A stretch of 27,031 bases of DNA, taken from positions 1 to 27,031 of IMG/VR virus record IMGVR_UViG_3300029822_000062; one strand, 5' to 3'. The position numbers were made by a program, and so were the translations under genes. The stretch is from a virus. Taxonomy: Duplodnaviria; Caudoviricetes. Positions 7,030-27,031 of the stretch are shown piece after piece. Under the pieces are notes generated by a model. The model made no database searches. It had not been told where the DNA came from and worked only from the letters and a program-made list of their open reading frames with translations. Within the stretch, counting starts at the first letter, position 1; the number at the start of each line of letters is the position of its first letter.

Positions 7030-7674
7030 ATGAATAAAGAATACAACTTAAATCTAGTAACACCTCCTGCAGTTGAACCATTAACCTTAGAAGAAGTTGA
7101 AAACTATCTAAAGGTTGATGATACCATAGATGATCTAGAGAAAAATTATATTAGTTCATTAATTACACTTGCACGAGAATATTGCGAAGGCCGACAAAAA
7201 CGAGCATATATAACACAGACATGGGAAATGGCTCTACAGGAATTCCCCTGTAGACATACTGACGCGCTGAATGATTATGAAGAAACTGACATTATAGAAA
7301 TCCCTAAAGGCAATTTACAATCAATTAATAGCTTTGTCTATAAAGATTTATACGGTAATGCAAAAACATTAGATGAAAATGTTGATTATATAGTTAGTAA
7401 AAGAGGTATAGTAGGGAAAGTATGTCCACCATATGCATGCATATTTCCAACTGTACCTTTGTGGCCTTTAGACCCTATAATAATTAATTTTACCTGTGGA
7501 TATGGTGATGATGGTACAAAAGTGCCTTTTAAAGTAAAGCAAGCAATGAAACTTTTAATAAGCCATTGGTATAATACAAGAATTGTTATTAATTCAAGCA
7601 ATGCTAGCGTTTCAAAAGAAATAGAGTTTACTGTAAGTGCCTTGCTAGGCGTGGATAAGATATATAAGCTATAG
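7030..7674 (+). CDS. Head-tail connector (HK97 gp6/SPP1 gp15-like)
   Basis: PPAVEPLTLEEVENYLKVD, LAREYCE..RAYITQTW and VKQAMKLLISHWYNTR. Confidence 0.88.
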   Translation: MNKEYNLNLVTPPAVEPLTLEEVENYLKVDDTIDDLEKNYISSLITLAREYCEGRQKRAYITQTWEMALQEFPCRHTDALNDYEETDIIEIPKGNLQSINSFVYKDLYGNAKTLDENVDYIVSKRGIVGKVCPPYACIFPTVPLWPLDPIIINFTCGYGDDGTKVPFKVKQAMKLLISHWYNTRIVINSSNASVSKEIEFTVSALLGVDKIYKL

Positions 7675-11410: not shown

Positions 11411-12001
11411 ATGTTTTCCAAAGGTAAAAAATTGAAGGAAATGTTTCCTAATTATGATTTTTATGATTCTATATATGGTGATTTTTACCTACTTATAGGA
11501 AATGAAGATTTAATTTTTATAAATAAGCGGGATGCTAAAAAAGTAGTATTAAAAGAAATACAACCTGAAAGAATTACACAAATAGATGATTTAGAGGTAT
11601 ATCAAGATGGTAAAACTATAAAATGTGGAAATGGTGGCAAGGTGTTAGCAGGTGGAATTACATTTGGCTTACTTGGAGCGTTAGTTGGTGCCAATGCTAA
11701 ACATAAAGAAATAGATTATGTAACAAGTTTAGGATTAAACATTTATGCTGATGGTAAGTTATATAATTATTGTAGTATAAAAACTGAAACTAAAAAGAAT
11801 AGTTTTACTTATAGAATAAGTATAGAAACCTTAAATAGCCTTAGGGCAAAGTTATTAAAATTCCAGAACACAATTGAAGATACTATAGTAAAAGATGATA
11901 TTATAACTCAGATTAAAGCACTAGCAGATTTAAAAGAGCAGGGTGTACTTACAGAAGAAGAATTTACTAAAAAGAAAACTGAATTATTAGCAAAGATATA
12001 A
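11411..12001 (+). CDS. SHOCT-domain membrane-associated protein (moron)
   Basis: Glycine-zipper hydrophobic segment VLAGGITFGLLGALVGA and C-terminal SHOCT 'IKALADLKEQGVLTEEEFTKKKTELL'. Confidence 0.8.
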   Translation: MFSKGKKLKEMFPNYDFYDSIYGDFYLLIGNEDLIFINKRDAKKVVLKEIQPERITQIDDLEVYQDGKTIKCGNGGKVLAGGITFGLLGALVGANAKHKEIDYVTSLGLNIYADGKLYNYCSIKTETKKNSFTYRISIETLNSLRAKLLKFQNTIEDTIVKDDIITQIKALADLKEQGVLTEEEFTKKKTELLAKI

Positions 12002-12026: not shown

Positions 12027-12078
12027 TTTAGAGATATTTTTTATATCTCCTTTTTCTTTTATAGAGGAGGTGACACAA

Positions 12079-12597
12079 ATTAGTAGAACGATAGCAACTA
12101 TACTGAACTTAAAAGACTTATTCAGCCCCACCTTACGAGAGACGGTTAATAATACTAAAGAGTTTCAAAGGCAAATTCAGCATACTCAAAATGAAATTAC
12201 GAAATTAAAAGACAATGTTTCTAATAATTTTGGAAATATTAAGGCAAAGGTAGCTGGAGTGGTAACAGGACTTGGAGTTGCTGAATTTGCAAAACAATCA
12301 GTTGAACTCGCTAGTAATCTTGTTGAAGTCCAGAATGTAGTAGACCAGACTTTTGGAAGTGGCGCAACGCAAATAAATAATTGGAGCAAAACTGCCCTAA
12401 ACGCTTTTGGATTAAATCAATTGCAAGCAAAGCAATTTACTGGGTATTTAGGCGCTATGATGAAAAGTTCTGGAATAACTGGAGATGCACTTACAAAAAT
12501 GAGTGAAAATCTAGTCGGACTTGCTGGAGATATGGCATCATTTGATAACCTAGATCCTGAGGTAGCTTTTGAAAAAATTAGAAGTGGTATATCGGGT
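12079..12597 (+). CDS. Tape measure protein, exon 1
   Basis: RBS GGAGGTG, then ATT-AGT-AGA (xSRTIATILNLKD). TMP motifs EVQNVVDQTFG and LAGDMASF. Ends KIRSGISG at the group I 5' splice site. Confidence 0.85.
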
Positions 12598-12682
12598 AAA
12601 TGTTTTGCCCCTCGCTATAGAAATGTAGCATAGAAGGTCGAGTAAAATCGGTGAAAGCTAAGTTAATTAATTATATAAAATA

Positions 12683-12811
12683 TGGTATAATATAAATATA
12701 GGATAGGTTTGAATTAGCTACTCAAACTGATAAGGGTATTTTCCTAGACACCCTTCCTATTTAAATAATTCAATATCTAGGAAAATAAAACCTATAGGAG
12801 GGTTATTTATT
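12683..12811 (+). promoter_or_regulatory. Internal extended -10 promoter and structured leader RNA, copy 1
   Basis: TGGTATAAT, then a three-stem junction with a 12-bp pseudoknot, then RBS GGAGGG. Homologous to 15590-15720. Confidence 0.75.
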
Positions 12812-13684
12812 ATGCAAAAAATTAGTGGAATTTACAAAATAACTTGTCTGTCCAATAAAAAGTTTTACATTGGTTCATCAGTAGATATAAAAAAGAGATG
12901 GAATGAGCACATATGGGAACTTAATAATGGCAAACATTGTAATAAGCACCTTCAAGATGCGTGGGATAAATATGGACAAGGCAATTTCAAATTTGAGATT
13001 ATAGAAAAATGTGGTAAGAATAATATATTACAAAAAGAGCAAGAGTATATTGATTTATATAATGTTTGTGATAGAACTAGAGGATTTAATATCTCCAAAG
13101 ATGCTTTAGCACCAATGAAAGGAAGAAAACATAGTAAAGAAACTAGAAAACATTTTTCCAAGATAAGAAAAGGAACCTTAAAAGGCAAAAATAACCCAAT
13201 GTATGGGAAACACTTAACCTTAGAGCAAAAAGAACATTTAAGAATGTTAAATATGGGACAAAATAATGCTTTTTATGGTAAAAAACATACTAAAGAAGCT
13301 AAAAACAAAATTAGTATAGCAAATAAAGGAAGAACAGTTTCAGAAACACAAAAGCAACATTTAAGTATGACTATGCTAGGAGAAAATAATCCTTTTTTTG
13401 GGAAAAAACATTCTCAACAAGATTTAAACAAAATGAGCAAAAACAGAAAAGGAAAATGTGCGGGCAAAGAAAATCCTAATTCTAAAAAAGTTGTAAAACT
13501 TGATGAAGGAAATAATTTAATAGAAATATATGATACTGTAACAGAGGCAGCAAATAAAAATAATGCTCAGCGTTCACATATAGCATTAGTTTGCAGAGGA
13601 GAAAGAAAACACACAGGTGGATATAAGTGGATATACTATGAGGACTATTTAAAATTAGATAAGGGAAAAACACAGAGTGCTTAA
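12812..13684 (+). CDS. Intron-encoded GIY-YIG homing endonuclease with NUMOD3 repeats and a NUMOD1-like C-terminus
   Basis: GIYKIT..FYIGSS..KRW..H, repeated NP(M/F)(Y/F)GKKH(S/T) units and a C-terminal TVTEAA..IALVC..GGYKW. Confidence 0.92.
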   Translation: MQKISGIYKITCLSNKKFYIGSSVDIKKRWNEHIWELNNGKHCNKHLQDAWDKYGQGNFKFEIIEKCGKNNILQKEQEYIDLYNVCDRTRGFNISKDALAPMKGRKHSKETRKHFSKIRKGTLKGKNNPMYGKHLTLEQKEHLRMLNMGQNNAFYGKKHTKEAKNKISIANKGRTVSETQKQHLSMTMLGENNPFFGKKHSQQDLNKMSKNRKGKCAGKENPNSKKVVKLDEGNNLIEIYDTVTEAANKNNAQRSHIALVCRGERKHTGGYKWIYYEDYLKLDKGKTQSA

Positions 13685-13702
13685 TACCATAGGCACTCTT
13701 TT
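13674..13702 (+). terminator. Hairpin/terminator at the end of the GIY-YIG ORF
   Basis: AGAGTGC-ttaataccatag-GCACTCT followed by TTT. Homologous to 16996-17024. Confidence 0.6.
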
Positions 13703-13963
13703 ATAATGTAATTAATTAATATGCCAATACCGAGGAAAGCTATCAGATTACGAAAGGCTGATAACCTCCGTAGAGCGTAGAGAGTGAATAAATATAATCT
13801 CTCCAAGAGTATTCGACACGATTATATATAGTATAATCTGAAAACCTAACGTTAAAACGAGGGTGAAAATGTACGCCGAACTGGGTATGAATTAACATAC
13901 CGATAATCAATGAGGGAAACCTCCAGAAATAAAGGATAAAAAGCCTTTATGATAACATAATTG

Positions 13964-15449
13964 GAAACTGAACCATTAAAAGAAATTGGCATAAATATGG
14001 ATGTTGCTAACTTGAAGGCTTATGCATTAAAAGAGGGCATCACTAAGAGCTATGAAAGCATGAACCAAGCTGAACAAACAACATTAAGATATAACTATTT
14101 AATGAGTGTTACAGCCGATAAACACGGTGATTTTGCTAAAACACAACAAACTTTCGCCAACCAAATGAGGATTGCTAAAGGTAGTATAGGACAGGCAGGA
14201 GCCAGTATTGCAACAGGATTTTTACCATATTTAAATAAACTCTTATTAATGTTTAATAATGGAGGTTTGAAATCAATTGGAAGCATTTTTAGTGGCATAG
14301 GTAACACAATAATAAGCATTGCTAATAGTGCGAAAGTCCCAATACAAAGCTTAGTTAATAGTTTAGGCAATTTAGCTAAAACAAGTGGACTAAAAACTTT
14401 ATTTTCTGGAGTAGATAGTAAGCCGTTAGAAACACTTAAATATACAATTAATAGTGTTATTTATGGCATAAGAGATTTAGTCAATTTTATAGCAGACCAT
14501 ATGACGGCAACTAAAACTATTTTAGCCGGTGTAGGTGGTGCATTTGCAGCAGCTAAGTTTATACAAGAAGCTATAAAAGTGCAGAAAGCTATAAAAGATG
14601 TTAGTAAAGGAATAGAGGATTTAAAAAATTTAAGCAAAGTAGGAAAACTTTTTTCAACCTTATTCAGCGTGCCTGGTGGAGCATTAGGATTCATTGCAAT
14701 TATTGCAATAGTAGCAGCAGGAGCATATTTAATTATTAATCATTGGACACAAGTAAAACAATTTGCAGACAATTTCTTTAATAGTGTACAAGGAAAATTT
14801 TTAACGGCAACAGTTGGAATTTTAGGAATAACTAAAGCTACAAAGGCACTAGGAATAACATTTACGGATTTAAAAATTATTGGACTATATGCTGCAGATG
14901 CAGTGAAAAAAATAGGACTTGGTATTGGTACAGGATTTTCTAAAGCTGGCCTATTAGCAAAAACTTTAGGTTCTAGTTTACTTGGAATAGGGAAAAGTGC
15001 ACTTAGTGCAGCTAGAGATATAGCAATAATGACAGGAGGAATAGTAAAACAGGGTGCATTATGGGCAGCTAATGCAATTAAAGCTGGGGTATATAAAGTA
15101 GCAACTCTTGCAGTAGCGGCAGCACAAAGGACGGCTGCAGTGGCACAAAGAGTATTAAATATTGTAATGGATGCTAATCCTATAGTATTAATAATAACTG
15201 CAATCGCCGGACTAGTTGCCGCATTAGTAACCCTATATAATAAAAATGTTTGGTTTAGGAATAAAGTAAATGAAGTATTTGCATGGTTTGGAACATTACC
15301 CAGCAAGTTCAAGGGCTGGGCACATGATATGATAGACGGTTTTGTACAAGGGATACAAGATAAAATTGCATCAGTAAAGCAAGGTGCTCAAAACATAGCT
15401 AACACAATTAGAAAAATACTTCATTTTAGTACACCAGACGAAGGACCGT
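13964..15449 (+). CDS. Tape measure protein, exon 2
   Basis: Begins ETEPLKEIGINM. Ala/Gly-rich helical sequence, ANPIVLII..LY.KN.WFRN motif, ends HFSTPDEGP+T. Confidence 0.88.
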
Positions 15450-15589
15450 TAAAATTAGCGGCTTGATATAGCAATATATCAATGAATAACCATGTGAACC
15501 TATAAATATAGGGTGTGTATGAATAACCATATGCTAACGGTGAAAGCTAAGTTTATATTTGTTTAAAATGAAAATGATAATTAAAAATA

Positions 15590-15720
15590 TGGTATAATAT
15601 AAGTAGGATAGATAAGGAAGTCGCGAGCCTTATTGATAAGGGTGTTTTCCCAAATGCCTTTCCTTCGAATTAAAATTAAATATTTTGGGAAATAAAAGAC
15701 CTATGGGAGGGTTATTTGTT
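15590..15720 (+). promoter_or_regulatory. Internal extended -10 promoter and structured leader RNA, copy 2
   Basis: TGGTATAAT, the same stem architecture as copy 1 with compensatory changes, then RBS GGAGGG. Confidence 0.75.
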
Positions 15721-17013
15721 ATGCCAAAAAAATTCACAATAGAGCAGATTAAAAAATTTGTAAAAGGAAATTCAGATTGCAAATTATTAGATGAAGAATA
15801 CATTAATCAAGACACAAAGATGAAATTTCAATGTAAGTGTGGGAACATATTTGAAACTACTTTTAGCAGGTTTAAAAATAAAAATAAAAGGCAATGTAGT
15901 GAATGCGGTAAAAAGTCTAGGATTAAGAAAAGGAGAAAACCACATAAAGAATTTTGCAAGCAGGTTTATGAATTGGTTGGGAATGAATATTTAGTTCTTG
16001 GAAAATATAAAAATAATTGTACTAAAGTTTTAATGGAACATAATAAATGCGGACATTCATATGAAGTTACTCCAGGTAATTTTTTAAGAGGTGAAAGATG
16101 CCCAAACTGTTTTGGAACTCCTAAAAAAGACACAGAACAATTTAAAAAAGAAGTATTTAAAAAATGGGGTAATGAATATAAAGTTTTAGGGCAATATAAA
16201 AGCAATAACTCAAAAATATTAATAGAGCATACTAAATGTGGGTTTAAATGGTTCACATTGCCAAGACATTTATTAGAAGACCATGGATGCCCTAAATGCT
16301 CTAATAATATTAAAAAAGATATTGAAATATTTAAAAAAGAGCTTAGCAAAATTAATAAAAATATAGTTGTATTAGGAGAATATGAAAATGTGGATACTCC
16401 AATTAAAGTTAGATGTTTAATAGATGGTTATGAATGGAGAGCTGCTCCACATAATTTATTAAAAGGTAGCAAATGCCCACGATGCAGTAAGCACGAAAGA
16501 TACACCACTAAAACTTATAAAGATAAAATATTGAATTTATATGGAAATGAATATAGTATTTTAGGAAATTATATTAACAGTAAAACCAAAATATTAATTA
16601 AGCATAACAAATGCGGACATATTTGGAAAGCTGTTCCTCCAAGTTTAATAAGTGGTTATGGGTGCCCTAAATGTAATGAAAGCAAAGGAGAAAAGAAAAT
16701 TTCCACATATTTAGATAAAAATAATGTTAAATATATAACCCAATATAAGTTTAAAAGTTGTAAAAATAAAAGAGAATTGCCATTTGATTTTTATTTATCT
16801 GAATATAATATTTGCATTGAATATGATGGAGAACAACATTTTAAGCCATACAGATTCACAGATAAAAAGAAATCTTTTGAAAAATTGCATATGACTAAAG
16901 TTAGAGACCAGATAAAAAATAAATACTGCAAAGAGAACAATATAAAGCTTGTAAGAATACCATATACAGAATTTAACAATATAGAAATTATTTTAAAGAG
17001 TGTTTTACCATAG
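15721..17013 (+). CDS. Intron-encoded putative homing endonuclease: five tandem Zn-ribbon repeats plus a Vsr/DUF559-like (EDxHD-type) nuclease domain
   Basis: Repeats (H/C)xxCG..W..P..LL.G..CPxC. C-terminal SKGEKKI..PFDFYL..IEYDGEQH..RDQIKNKYC..IKLVRIPY. ATG 15721 follows the RBS. Confidence 0.85.
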   Translation: MPKKFTIEQIKKFVKGNSDCKLLDEEYINQDTKMKFQCKCGNIFETTFSRFKNKNKRQCSECGKKSRIKKRRKPHKEFCKQVYELVGNEYLVLGKYKNNCTKVLMEHNKCGHSYEVTPGNFLRGERCPNCFGTPKKDTEQFKKEVFKKWGNEYKVLGQYKSNNSKILIEHTKCGFKWFTLPRHLLEDHGCPKCSNNIKKDIEIFKKELSKINKNIVVLGEYENVDTPIKVRCLIDGYEWRAAPHNLLKGSKCPRCSKHERYTTKTYKDKILNLYGNEYSILGNYINSKTKILIKHNKCGHIWKAVPPSLISGYGCPKCNESKGEKKISTYLDKNNVKYITQYKFKSCKNKRELPFDFYLSEYNICIEYDGEQHFKPYRFTDKKKSFEKLHMTKVRDQIKNKYCKENNIKLVRIPYTEFNNIEIILKSVLP

Positions 17014-17024
17014 CACTCTTTTTT
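16996..17024 (+). terminator. Hairpin/terminator at the end of the second endonuclease ORF
   Basis: AAGAGTGT..TACCATA..GCACTCTT followed by TTTT. Confidence 0.6.
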
Positions 17025-17244
17025 ATTTTAAATAAATATAAATATGCCAATACCGTGCCAAGCCCTAACAATATAGCTATGGCTATGTTAGTGGAAGGTG
17101 TAACGACTATTCCGAGAGGAAGTACATTCTATGTGAAATTCATAGTTTGGAAGTGCATGGGTTCTTTTAATAAAAGAATATGAGATAGTCTAATCCGACT
17201 AATTTAATCAGTGTTAAAGTATTCCGAAAGGAACGGTATAAATG

Positions 17245-18380
17245 TAAAACCATATGCAACTTGGATGCCGGATATGGTAAATGGTATGAACCAAGGTATT
17301 ATTAATACCACTCCAAATATTGTAAAGGGCATAACAGATATGGCAACTAATATGACAGTACCTATAAACGACTTTGTAAAATCTAATAATACATTAGGTG
17401 TTAATGCGGTACAAGAGTTAAGTGCAGGCATATCAAGTCAGGAAAGTAATGCAGTTGCTACAGCACAAAGTTTAGCTACGAAAATATTACAAGGCGTTAA
17501 AGATATTTTTGGAATACATTCCCCAAGTAGGGCAATGGGTGATGTGGGTATTAACTTTATGCAAGGCTTTATAGACAAATTAAAGAGCAGCAATATAGCA
17601 GATGTAATTAAAACGGTATTTGGAGATATAGCAAGTTTAGCAAACGGAACTTTAGGTGGGGCATTAAGTGGTATAGTGTCTAATTTTATAAACACTGGAG
17701 ATTTAAAAGGACTAGGCGGTATGCTTCAAGGTGTAATGCAAAATGGATTAAGTTTTCTTGGTAGTGGAAGCGTTAGTGGCAATGTAAGTGAATGGTTAGC
17801 TGCTGCATTGGCTGCAACAGGAACATCTATGGATTGGTTACCTGGATTACTTAAGCTAGTAAGTTATGAATCTGGAGATCCCGGAACACTAGGAAGTGGA
17901 GATGCTTCTTTAGTTAACAGTGTCCCTGTAGGAAATGAATATGCAACAGGGCTCTTACAGATGTTGCCTTCCACTTTTAGAGAGTTTACAGCGGGCATTG
18001 GAGATATAACAAACCCTGTAGCAAATGCGGCGGCAGCAATAAGATATATAAAGTCTAGGTATGGCAGTGTATACAATACCCCATTATTTACAAGTGGCGG
18101 CAGGTATAATGGATATGCAACTGGTACAAATAGTGCTAACAAAGGCATAGCAGAACTAGCAGAGGATGGGGCGGAACTTGTTACAGGCAAACAATTTAGA
18201 AACTTGCATGGTGGAGAACATGTTTATACAGCACAAGAAACAAAAGGTTTGCTAGGTGGTAAATCTATAAAAATGACAAATAACTTTTACTTTAAAGGTA
18301 ATATTGGAAATGAAGAATTTTTTGAAGAAGCAGGTAGTTATATTACTACTAAGTTCAGAACAGCATTAGCTAATATGTAG
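17245..18380 (+). CDS. Tape measure protein, exon 3, with a lytic transglycosylase (SLT-like) domain
   Basis: IFGIHSPSR; YES catalytic Glu, ATGLLQMLPSTF, NPVANAAAAIRYIKSRYG; GYATGT..AEDGAELV. The spliced CDS is 3141 nt = 1046 aa. Confidence 0.88.
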
Positions 18381-24035: not shown

Positions 24036-24129
24036 TATGGTTATTTTATAACAAAATGTTAATTAAAGCTAACAACTTATGATAAACTAAAACAGTTGAA
24101 ATTCAATTCAAAAATTGAAAGGTGACAAA

Positions 24130-24471
24130 GTGGAACCATTAATTTTACAAAAGAAAACAGAAGTGTTATTGAATAAAGAGGTATACCCTATACTAAAGAA
24201 GTATCCTAAGTCTGAGAAGTTTGCATTATGCCAGGAGATTAAGCAAGCTTTTTATAGGACTCTTAGAAATATTATGCTTGCTAATAATGTAAAAAGAAAT
24301 AGACTTCATTATCTTCAACAAGTTGATGCTGACTTGAAATTATTGCTTGTTTTGTTTTCTATATCTAGAGAACAAAAGTATATAACAGAAAGAAAGTGCT
24401 TACAGCTCCAGGACAAGATAAGCGAACTTGGGAGAATAACTGGTGGCTTAATGAAAGTATCAGTTAAATAA
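24130..24471 (+). CDS. avd: DGR accessory variability determinant (Avd-like four-helix bundle)
   Basis: YPKSEKFALCQEIK and ISELGRITGGL. Lies directly upstream of TR and RT; GTG start after AAAGGTGA. Confidence 0.9.
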   Translation: MEPLILQKKTEVLLNKEVYPILKKYPKSEKFALCQEIKQAFYRTLRNIMLANNVKRNRLHYLQQVDADLKLLLVLFSISREQKYITERKCLQLQDKISELGRITGGLMKVSVK

Positions 24472-24499
24472 AATAAATATAGGGTTAATTCTGTATGGG

Positions 24500-24596
24500 C
24501 TTCCTCTCGTGTTGTTCGCGGGTACAATTCTGCTCGCTATTTCAATAATAACAATAGTAATAATACTAACAATCTCATTGGGTGGCGCCCCGTCCT
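24500..24596 (+). repeat. DGR template repeat (TR)
   Basis: 97-nt non-coding copy of 26428-26524, rich in AAT/AAC codons. 9 of the 14 mismatches fall at TR adenines. Confidence 0.92.
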
Positions 24597-24752
24597 GTAA
24601 GCATTTAGATTGGTACGACTACGGTTTTATCAACATGACCCTAAAGTTTTATGTTTAGGTTAGGACTTCAGGGGAGAATTAATCCTTCACTAGTAAATGG
24701 TGTAAACACATGAATAATGGCATTTTGCCAAGCTTTGAAAGGAGATGCCAAA

Positions 24753-25811
24753 ATGCCGAATACTTTATTTGAAAAGGCAGTAGACTATAAAAATTTAAAA
24801 GAAAGCTATAAGAGAGCACAACAGGCTCAGAAAAAATATAAAAAAGAAGCTATAATATTTGATATGGCAAGGGAAAAGAATTTGGTGAAACTTTGGAGAG
24901 AATTAAAAAATGGAACTTATATGCCTGGAAGTTATATAGAATTTAAGGTATATGAACCTAAAGAACGTGTAATTCATGCTCCAAGGATAAGAGATAAAAT
25001 AGTTCAATTTGCAGCACATATGGTACTTCAGGAAGTTTATTATAATAAATTCATAAATTCTTCTTATGCTTGTCTAATGGAAAGAGGAACTCATAAAGCT
25101 GTACAGAAGGTTCAACATGACATGAGGTATGTCCAATGGAAACATGGTAATGGTTGGATACTTAAGATGGATGCAAGAAAATTTTTCTATTCTATAAACA
25201 GAGACATACTTAAACAGATCTTAAGGAAAAAGATTAAGGATGATAAGTTTTTAAATCTTTTAGATAAAATTATAGATAGCTCTCCAGAAGGTGAAAAAGG
25301 GATTCCTCTTGGAAATGTAACTAGTCAGGATTTTGCCAATATATATCTTAATGAAGTGGACCAATATGCTAAAAGGTATCTTGGCCTTAAATACTATGTA
25401 AGATATATGGATGATATTATAGTAATTCTAAGGACAAAAGAAGAAGCAAAGCAAGCTAAAGAGAATATAACAAAATTTCTAAATGAAAAGCTTGATTTAC
25501 AAATAAATAATAAAACTAAAGTATTCCCTTTAAGCCAAGGTGTTAATGCTTATGGATTTAAAATATTTACTACCCATAAGTTGATAAGGAATTCTTCCAA
25601 GGCAGCTATGAAGAGAAGAATTAAAGCTATGGATAAAAAAGTTAAAAATAAGGAAATGTCAGAAAAAGAAGTACAGCAAAGTGTTAATAGCTGGTTAGGC
25701 CATGCAAGACATTCTAATAGCTATAACCTTAGTAAAAAAATATTCAGTAGATACAATTATATAAAAATAGAAAATCCCAAATTTAAGTTTGGGAAGATAA
25801 GCACTCAGTAA
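24753..25811 (+). CDS. DGR reverse transcriptase
   Basis: EPKERVI, RDKIVQ, RGTHKA, LKMDARKFF, GIPLGNVTSQ (DGR-type SQ motif) and YVRYMDD. RBS AAAGGAG before ATG 24753. Confidence 0.95.
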   Translation: MPNTLFEKAVDYKNLKESYKRAQQAQKKYKKEAIIFDMAREKNLVKLWRELKNGTYMPGSYIEFKVYEPKERVIHAPRIRDKIVQFAAHMVLQEVYYNKFINSSYACLMERGTHKAVQKVQHDMRYVQWKHGNGWILKMDARKFFYSINRDILKQILRKKIKDDKFLNLLDKIIDSSPEGEKGIPLGNVTSQDFANIYLNEVDQYAKRYLGLKYYVRYMDDIIVILRTKEEAKQAKENITKFLNEKLDLQINNKTKVFPLSQGVNAYGFKIFTTHKLIRNSSKAAMKRRIKAMDKKVKNKEMSEKEVQQSVNSWLGHARHSNSYNLSKKIFSRYNYIKIENPKFKFGKISTQ

Positions 25812-25825
25812 TGGGTGTTTTTTTA
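25800..25825 (+). terminator. Intrinsic terminator after RT
   Basis: AGCACTCA-gtaa-TGGGTGTT followed by a T tract. Confidence 0.7.
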
Positions 25826-25850
25826 TTTTACAAAAAAGGAGAGTGAAATA

Positions 25851-27031
25851 ATGGCCAATGGTGATCTGGTTAAATTAGGTACCTTTTATTTAAATGGTAC
25901 AAAGCAAGCAAGACCTACTTATCCATGGCAGAATGGATCTACGCCAACAGGAGCTCCTGGAGCAGGCAATATACCCACTTACTCATCAGGAAACATAGAA
26001 ATAAAAGACACAGATGCTGATGATGCTTATAAGATTCAATGGATAGAGGTAAATGATACAACTAATAATAAGAAACTTCTAATAGCTGATAGAAACTTAT
26101 TAGTAAGTGCTTCATGGGACGCACTAAATGCTCAATCATTAATAACAGGCAAAACTGTAACTATAGATGGACAGCAGTATAAGTTAAGGGTACTTACAGG
26201 CGGTAGTAATTATAGAAGTGGCAGTGATAATTATAGTGGTGGTACTCCTACTGACAATGAATGGGATAGAATAATTGCAAATGAAGCAGCCTTTTCAGGA
26301 CTACCTACTCCTAGCACTACTGACTTAGATTCTACACAAAATGAAACTGATAGGCTGGGAACACATAACCAAAAGTGGAATTGGTATAATTGTTATAGTT
26401 GGGCACAAGAGACATTTTATCCAAATTCTTCCTCTCGTGTTATTCGTGGGTACGATTCTGCCCGCTTTTTCACTACTAACAATAGTACTAATCCTTACAG
26501 TACCGTTGGGTGGCGCCCCGTCCTTGAAGTTCTGAACACTGCCCCTCTGGTATCTGATTCAGATAAGGACTTAGGAAGTTATGCTGCAGCTTTGACAAAG
26601 AACTACACTGTAACAGATGCAGATGGAGATACAATCACAGTAGTTGAAAAATTAGATGGAAGTGTAATTAGAACATTAAATAATCAAGCGAGTGGAACGA
26701 GCTTAACCGTAGATTTAACTACACAATGGTCAAGTTTAAGTTTGGCAAGTCATACAATTACAATTGAAGTAACTGATTCAAAGGGACTAGCTGGAGTAAC
26801 AAGAACTTGGACATTTACCAAAACAAATAGTGCTCCTGGAGCACCAAGCATAACCTCACCTGTTAATTTAATGAGAGTACCTCAGAATTTTGATGTAGAG
26901 TTTACAACCTCAACTGATGTAGAGGGAGATACCCAAACATTAAAGTTACAAATTGCAGATGATAGTGGATTTACTCAAAATGCACAAACAATTACAACTG
27001 GATTAAAAAAATACAATGATACAAGTAAGCA
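25851..27031 (+). CDS. DGR target protein (C-type-lectin-like variable domain followed by Ig-like beta domains), 3' truncated by the window
   Basis: Missing from the ORF track because it has no stop in the window. RBS AAGGAG, ATG 25851, open to the window end. Contains SWAQE..SSRVIRG..GWRPVLE followed by NTAP..YTVTDADGD and NSAP..DVEGD. Confidence 0.88.
   Translation, partial: MANGDLVKLGTFYLNGTKQARPTYPWQNGSTPTGAPGAGNIPTYSSGNIEIKDTDADDAYKIQWIEVNDTTNNKKLLIADRNLLVSASWDALNAQSLITGKTVTIDGQQYKLRVLTGGSNYRSGSDNYSGGTPTDNEWDRIIANEAAFSGLPTPSTTDLDSTQNETDRLGTHNQKWNWYNCYSWAQETFYPNSSSRVIRGYDSARFFTTNNSTNPYSTVGWRPVLEVLNTAPLVSDSDKDLGSYAAALTKNYTVTDADGDTITVVEKLDGSVIRTLNNQASGTSLTVDLTTQWSSLSLASHTITIEVTDSKGLAGVTRTWTFTKTNSAPGAPSITSPVNLMRVPQNFDVEFTTSTDVEGDTQTLKLQIADDSGFTQNAQTITTGLKKYNDTSK
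26428..26524 (+). repeat. DGR variable repeat (VR)
   Basis: In-frame copy of TR encoding SSRVIRGYDSARFFTTNNSTNPYSTVGWRPV, ending in the GC-rich IMH-like GGGTGGCGCCCCGTCC. Confidence 0.92.

Follow-up and report, generated by a model that had tools for sequence, protein, structure and literature searches.

Why should two unrelated intron endonucleases be preceded by the same leader RNA? The question is raised by a stretch of 27,031 nucleotides (nt) from the IMG/VR virus record IMGVR_UViG_3300029822_000062 (Duplodnaviria; Caudoviricetes), referred to here at its full length as the window, which appears to be the head-tail module of a Clostridium-type phage (host type inferred). Two group I introns interrupt a gene of this module, and the endonuclease open reading frame (ORF) of each is headed by a leader of about 115 nt, which forms a three-way junction and in which the loop of P3 pairs with sequence further down. 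An earlier note, made from the letters alone, had described a layout, stems and a loop pseudoknot common to both leaders, and we found all the listed elements in place. As judged from its sequence features, the leader is a variant branch of the int-alpA kind of RNA (Rfam RF02996) and not a ribozyme. It has two features beyond the earlier note's description, namely a self-complementary P2 loop and a second partner for the P3 loop (L3).

The core of the leader runs through P1, the strand UAG, P2, the strand YGAWA and P3, and then returns into P1. In copy 1 (12698–12760; all leader and intron features lie on the plus strand), the UAG and YGAWA strands join P1 (12698–12703/12755–12760), P2 (12707–12712/12722–12727) and P3 (12733–12737/12750–12754), whose gene-specific pairing loop L3 occupies 12738–12749, and the start codon follows at 12812. 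The three-way junction of copy 2 (15605–15664) is made of P1 (15605–15608/15661–15664), P2 (15612–15617/15628–15633) and P3 (15639–15644/15655–15660), with the start codon at 15721. Single-sequence folding favors the three-way junction in copy 1 (−15.0 kcal/mol) and, with a caveat for the second copy, places that of copy 2 within 0.1 kcal/mol of the best fold. Each core is preceded by an extended −10 promoter-like site (12683–12691 with the −10 hexamer at 12686, and 15590–15598 with the hexamer at 15593), neither of which was called by a generic promoter scanner. The spacing between the −10 site and P1, alike across the family described below, predicts that transcription probably begins with the first bases of P1. 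The same extended −10 nonamer also occurs at 7567 and 26382 of the window, within genes and without a leader.

When 18 other phage sequences, the window copies excluded, were used to build a covariance model, it detected both copies (43.4 and 29.2 bits), so that the likeness of the two leaders goes beyond chance. Pattern scans of viral contigs yielded 140 parser hits, seven of which were dropped by eye as chance, leaving 133 distinct structured instances with 68 representatives at less than 80% mutual identity; the L3-partner counts below were made on 61 representatives, seven without a called ORF being excluded. The proposal that pairing is kept despite sequence change is borne out by an 85-sequence alignment, in which pairing holds for 92.4% of cells and both partners vary in 12 of the 16 pairs. 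Its covariation score of 0.742 compares with 0.189 after shuffling and at most 0.142 after sliding (0/500 shuffles reach the score). This alignment was fitted to the structure; an unfitted MAFFT subset, used as a check, gave 0.642 versus 0.204. One relative (L182) is nearly copy 1 with a single P3 pair exchanged, a compensatory change between close kin, and the junction bases are the most conserved positions of the family. Loose patterns detect a promoter-like motif upstream of P1 in 52 of the 61 relatives (24 Bacteroidota-type, 28 sigma-70-type).

The family is widespread in phage contigs. Promoter motifs and cargo, from which host type was inferred, suggest that this long-armed branch spans Firmicutes-, Bacteroidota- and Proteobacteria-type phages. 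Yields depended on the search: a subtype pattern applied to 401 genomes of one clostridial-type family found six instances, five real and one chance; only 1/20 matches to a first loose pattern was true in viral contigs, and no member was noticed among the 120 matches listed for that pattern on genome contigs. Covariance-model searches of whole genomes, which scored the best 30–150 candidates each, were insensitive (1/150 in one run). For a common gut-phage member, RNA-seq reads yielded contigs and no transcript ends.

The first of the two additional features lies in P2, whose loop contains a self-complementary hexamer, UAGCUA in copy 1 (12715–12720) and UCGCGA in copy 2 (15621–15626). When the four central loop bases were left free, a palindromic hexamer was present in 46 of 48 unique viral hits, the two exceptions lacking the fold, whereas the chance expectation for a palindromic loop is about 1 in 16. 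A separate scan of viral contigs (scan A) gave 12/14 among folded hits, and an independent metagenome scan gave, among the matches listed, 70/72 structured sequences (51/52 clusters) versus 2/19 unstructured ones. Even a scan that disfavored the usual register returned a 4-nt palindromic core in 8/8 hits of at least 28 bits; three weaker hits without such a core may be chance. Two scans in which the palindrome was fixed in the pattern were kept out of these free-loop counts and are included only in the tally of 205 structured sequences used below. At least six different palindromes fill the loop, and near-identical leaders swap whole palindromes in several clades (e.g., L181/window copy 2, L462/L468, L262/L275, L159/L173 and L222/L487). 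Self-complementarity is thus maintained while the loop sequence changes, as would be expected of kissing-loop dimerizing RNAs. The predicted self-duplexes of copy 2 (−9.5 kcal/mol) and copy 1 (−6.5 kcal/mol) exceed the cross duplex between the two (−3.6 kcal/mol), which is consistent with separate channels for the two window copies. The consensus hairpin of RAGATH-14 (Rfam RF03145) carries a 9-nt palindromic loop identical to that of copy 1 (12707–12727), in a different, 190-nt architecture (score 15.3 against a cut-off of 149.1); this identity of sequence suggests a loop module common to different RNA families. A template-switch perfecting of the inverted repeat was ruled out because an asymmetric purine bulge persists.

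The second feature concerns L3, whose sequence varies between members and which has two complementary sites downstream. The first partner, the decoy D1, lies at 12776–12787 in copy 1 and 15684–15692 in copy 2 (predicted duplexes of −15.0 and −11.2 kcal/mol, respectively). The second, D2, coincides with the Shine-Dalgarno region, at 12795–12803 in copy 1 and at 15704–15712 in copy 2, where it sits in the loop of a small hairpin; the ribosome-binding site can thus be paired by upstream RNA (predicted L3:D2 duplexes of −8.3 and −9.0 kcal/mol). Among the representatives, the second-best L3 site scores at least 12 in 55/61, against 17% for loops and tails exchanged among members and 8% for shuffled tails, and a second partner was present in 58/72 of the independent metagenome set (among the matches listed). 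D1 and D2 are read by the same loop bases in 56/61 members, the upstream D1 being stronger in 39/61 and the downstream D2 in 17/61. D2 ends at most 13 nt from the called start in 59/61, a few starts being miscalled. In members with a Bacteroidota-type promoter, D2 is not a Shine-Dalgarno sequence and is nevertheless kept as a gene-specific repeat beside the start codon, which indicates that Shine-Dalgarno content does not by itself account for the two sites. Comparison of the family thus shows a fold, a conserved self-complementarity and, at the initiation region, the second of two target sites that exclude each other.

How is this RNA related to those already catalogued? Rfam scans of the window copies gave no significant match, in line with the earlier note, and 38 related loci gave no gathering-level match to the element. 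The int-alpA cut-off of 35.8 bits was not reached, the window copies giving no match and the best relatives 29.8 and 27.1 bits. These two are proteobacterial-type members, which align over the whole RF02996 model with the same junction strands and a U tail. The element shares with the int-alpA consensus a three-way junction, UAG and (C)GAAA strands and a CU that closes P3 ahead of P1; with true int-alpA members it shares a P2 loop able to pair with itself and a tandem pair of L3 partners upstream of the start codon. It differs in that int-alpA P1 ends in GCC, with a short P2 hairpin, whereas the window P1 ends in GGA, and in that P2 of this branch is longer, with a loop of 8–10 nt (6 bp and 9–10 nt in the window). 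The U-rich tail of int-alpA is absent from the window copies, and at least six U within 8 nt after P1 are present in 51% of the 61 relatives versus 3.7% of random positions. As for the association with integrase and alpA genes, which we take from the name int-alpA, two of 62 downstream genes encode integrases, and the window cargo consists of nucleases.

The likeness was followed in 27 int-alpA matches collected from cellular genomes, four of which did not parse. The 23 parsed P2 loops comprise eight GACG tetraloops, 11 loops with a palindromic core and four with neither, and a second L3 partner was found in 19/23, as compared with 40% for swapped and 24% for shuffled sequences. Our family covariance model matches 1/27 of these loci. 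Given the shared architecture and the below-cut-off scores, the window RNA is best described as a distinct long-P2 branch and not as a member by score, and it likely works as int-alpA does. The earlier note's view of an undescribed RNA is therefore not supported, since relatives match the full int-alpA model below its cut-off and true int-alpA RNAs share the architecture. In the literature searched, we found no functional study of int-alpA, the term being used in one paper for a gene order, and no paper combining the features or consensus strings of the element (a single match was chance). Fremin 2023 (PMC10690425) contains anonymous candidates before DUF1376, NUMOD4, HNH and GIY-YIG genes (e.g., DNAVirus_187, 2711, 4653 and 8377), and the branch may already bear a number there, in Fremin 2021 (PMC8040213) or in Weinberg 2017 (PMC5737381).

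The downstream genes are diverse. The 62 downstream proteins include 43 nucleases or nuclease-associated proteins (HNH/NUMOD4, GIY-YIG, zinc-finger-repeat and LAGLIDADG classes), 10 replication initiators (six DUF1376 and four assigned by PHROG), two tyrosine integrases and seven unassigned proteins. By a rough test combining motifs and nhmmer, only 10 of 58 representatives with enough flanking sequence look intronic. This scarcity of intronic members, together with the varied cargo, points to a general phage leader that is not part of an intron cassette. What stands of the earlier interpretation is a real, conserved leader that acts in cis, shows covariation, does not belong to the intron core and is placed ahead of unrelated nucleases. 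The cassette specific to introns and endonucleases is not supported, in view of these 10/58 and of the 12/62 cargo proteins that are replication initiators or integrases, nor is the ribozyme, for which no catalytic core was matched.

Several loci show particular arrangements. In L017 (1490–2760; also in L166), the leader and an HNH gene lie about 45 nt past an apparent break in the tape-measure gene, with no recognizable intron core before the leader and a terminator-like hairpin after it, where the contig ends; this may be an intron or a free insertion. A tRNA gene directly precedes the leader in L159 and L173 (around 3000), and a GIY-YIG-like gene follows. The leader is intact and the downstream frame stops early in L159, L355, L365 and L143 (pseudogene, recoded stop or assembly error). 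Contigs L174, L262/L263 and L275 each carry two leaders about 1.9 kb apart, those of L174 having the same palindrome and different L3 sequences. Finally, one member lies in an unannotated gap of a split terminase gene in a cultured, named Clostridium phage (L184, MW478292.1, 1591–1656).

What, then, might the leader do? We tentatively favor a scenario in which it would act as a 5' leader that controls translation of a downstream dose-sensitive phage gene according to the amount of RNA; a role of L3 in translational control, by whatever route, seems to us likely. The transcript would start at P1 and fold into the compact three-way junction, in which the P2 loop is kept self-complementary and L3 would pair with one of its two tandem, mutually exclusive sites, D1 near P1 or D2 over the initiation region. 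Because D1 is made first and is usually stronger, a lone transcript would park L3 on D1 and leave the initiation region open. As RNA accumulates, P2 loops would kiss, and a second L3 could then reach the message, clamp D2 and block initiation. The simplest source of this second L3 would be a tail-less core RNA, which many members might make by terminating at the U-tract that follows P1 and which could otherwise arise when the AU-rich linker decays; alternatively, two messages might swap strands. In a naive cell, the protein would first be made in a burst and its synthesis would then limit itself, whatever the encoded protein. We prefer this dose switch because it accounts for all three features together and suits dose-limited genes. 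Its extension to the whole int-alpA superfamily, as a portable, protein-free RNA dose sensor combining self-kissing recognition with a spare anti-initiation loop acting in trans, is a more doubtful proposition.

A number of observations weigh against the dose switch. Four of the 23 int-alpA P2 loops have no self-complementary core, and the non-palindromic UUGCUA occurs in 4 of the 205 structured sequences. Palindromes made only of A and U are common (UAAUUA in 30/205), with weak self-duplexes, down to −1.8 kcal/mol; mutants of the human immunodeficiency virus (HIV) dimerization initiation site (DIS) with more than one A-U pair replicate poorly (PMC5874298). In users of a Shine-Dalgarno sequence, the complementarity of D2 derives partly from a common purine-rich content. 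The L3 loops of the window also cross-pair with each other's D1 (−8.0 and −8.9 kcal/mol), so that specificity is incomplete. The U-tract frequency was compared with random locus positions, not with intergenic DNA, and the tract partly pairs in P1. Lastly, P1 is not followed by a U-tract in the window copies, so that where they would obtain a tail-less partner is conjecture.

Among the alternatives, a brake or timer acting only in cis within a monomeric RNA survives best, unlikely as we hold it to be. L3 would sit on D1 first and then relax to D2, or would sample both, and the palindromic loop would serve elsewhere, for example in a tertiary contact or as a protein site. Both L3 partners are within reach in cis, D2 is the stronger in the 17/61 cited above, the location of a window D2 in a hairpin loop suits a loop-loop contact in cis, and T-even endonucleases are known to use sequestration of the ribosome-binding site (PMC2988022). 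However, this scenario leaves the repeated swaps of whole palindromes and the GACG loops unexplained, and with D1 usually the stronger partner a shift to D2 would be unfavorable in most members.

Somewhat less plausible still is a switch sensing a protein or a ligand, in which a host factor or a metabolite bound to the conserved junction would move L3 between D1 and D2. The high conservation of the junction bases, common to int-alpA, would suit such a sensor, and the UAG/YGA junction presumably resembles the loop E submotif of 5S rRNA; so diverse a cargo can hardly have a single cognate protein, and this would fit a host factor. This explanation is at odds with D1 and D2 being near-identical repeats read by the same loop bases and with a cargo of selfish or replication genes rather than metabolic ones, and it does not explain the self-complementary loops.

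We regard as improbable that the core of about 65 nt serves chiefly as a small, terminated trans-acting RNA, for example by silencing the same gene of an incoming phage, cis control being secondary. A promoter directly before P1, a U-tract after it in about half of the members, and the typing of int-alpA by Rfam as 'Gene; sRNA', with a U tail included in the model, would fit this possibility; but L3 always matches its own downstream gene, and the window copies lack the tract. That the palindrome acts as DNA, either as a methylation site or as an operator for a dimeric protein, is very improbable: the loop cores are indeed short palindromes close to a promoter, several of which we take to be well-known methylase or restriction sites, but at least six palindromes as well as GACG fill the position, the flanks are asymmetric and the stems accept G-U on the sense strand. 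Least probable of all is a self-cleaving or capping ribozyme that would free the endonuclease message from its intron, since, although the window copies are intronic and the CUGAUA strand of copy 1 presumably resembles part of the hammerhead core, the rest of that core is absent, no Rfam ribozyme matches the window or the 38 loci, and the majority of the family lies outside introns, behind promoter-like sites of its own. On sequence, both a hammerhead and a k-turn were likewise rejected.

The dose switch has partial parallels in known systems. In CopA/CopT and RNAI/RNAII, an antisense RNA that tracks copy number blocks the replication initiator via a kissing contact. The working proposed here is similar, but there is no antisense gene, sensor and target being the same sense RNA. 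Retroviral dimers form loop-loop contacts through GACG tetraloops and through palindromes with flanking purines, and the leader resembles the HIV-1 DIS and the GACG tetraloops of murine leukemia virus in carrying a purine-flanked palindromic hexamer or, in int-alpA, a GACG tetraloop on a hairpin (PMC5874298). The retroviral loops dimerize genomes for packaging, whereas those of the leader are often AU-rich and belong to a bacterial translation leader, and the analogy implies no claim of homology. Sequestration of the ribosome-binding site is the control of T-even endonucleases (I-TevI/II/III, segB and Aeh1 mobE; PMC2988022). Both there and in the window leaders, the ribosome-binding site of an endonuclease encoded in an intron is covered by RNA structure, predicted in the window, and the gene is served by an internal promoter or promoter-like site. 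The T-even structure is a single hairpin, which the late transcript escapes by not including the 5' arm (PMC2988022). In the window, by contrast, the entire fold follows the promoter-like site (start predicted), and the leader adds loop-to-tail pairing, a duplicated target and a self-complementary loop.

The two window leaders are set in a prophage tape-measure gene of three exons (12070–18380; exons 12070–12597, 13964–15449 and 17245–18380), which encodes 1049 amino acids with a C-terminal SLT domain. In silico excision of both introns restores this single ORF, and both show the group I hallmarks of a U-G at the 5' splice site and a terminal G. Intron 1 (12598–13963), which was not matched by RF00028 in the Rfam scan of the window, carries its leader and ORF in a peripheral arm taken by eye as P5, and intron 2 (15450–17244) carries them in the equivalent arm; both leaders thus occupy equivalent positions, with the extended −10 site upstream and the start codon downstream. 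The cargo of intron 1 is a GIY-YIG endonuclease with NUMOD3 repeats (12812–13684, 290 amino acids). That of intron 2 is a zinc-finger-repeat (DUF4379/CapR) endonuclease (15721–17013, 430 amino acids), whose C-terminal domain matches PHROG families of homing or intron-encoded nucleases; its assignment to a Vsr-like type is a reading by eye, with no Pfam call.

Elsewhere in the window, a 196-amino-acid gene with a C-terminal SHOCT domain (11411–12001), which has the tail chaperone region on one side and the tape-measure gene on the other, is probably an accessory insert. A diversity-generating retroelement occupies 24115–26529. It comprises an Avd-like gene (24115–24471), a template repeat (24500–24601), an Rfam RT-9 RNA (24608–24719; 66.6 bits), a reverse transcriptase (24717–25811) and a variable repeat inside a downstream ORF (26428–26529), 9 of the 16 differences between the two repeats falling at template adenines.

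These results extend a catalogued RNA, for which we found no functional study, to a long-armed branch and offer a testable mechanism for it, with a bearing on how selfish nucleases might limit their own dose and how phage replication and integration genes might do so without a cognate repressor. If the dose-sensor reading is true, any gene placed behind the leader, be it for a homing nuclease, a replication initiator or an integrase, would be on at entry and silenced later, and swaps of palindrome and L3 would create partly insulated channels, as in the two introns of the window. Concentration-dependent self-pairing that switches translation would then be a regulatory logic that we did not find in the literature searched, and the leader would supply synthetic biology with a feedback part of about 110 nt.

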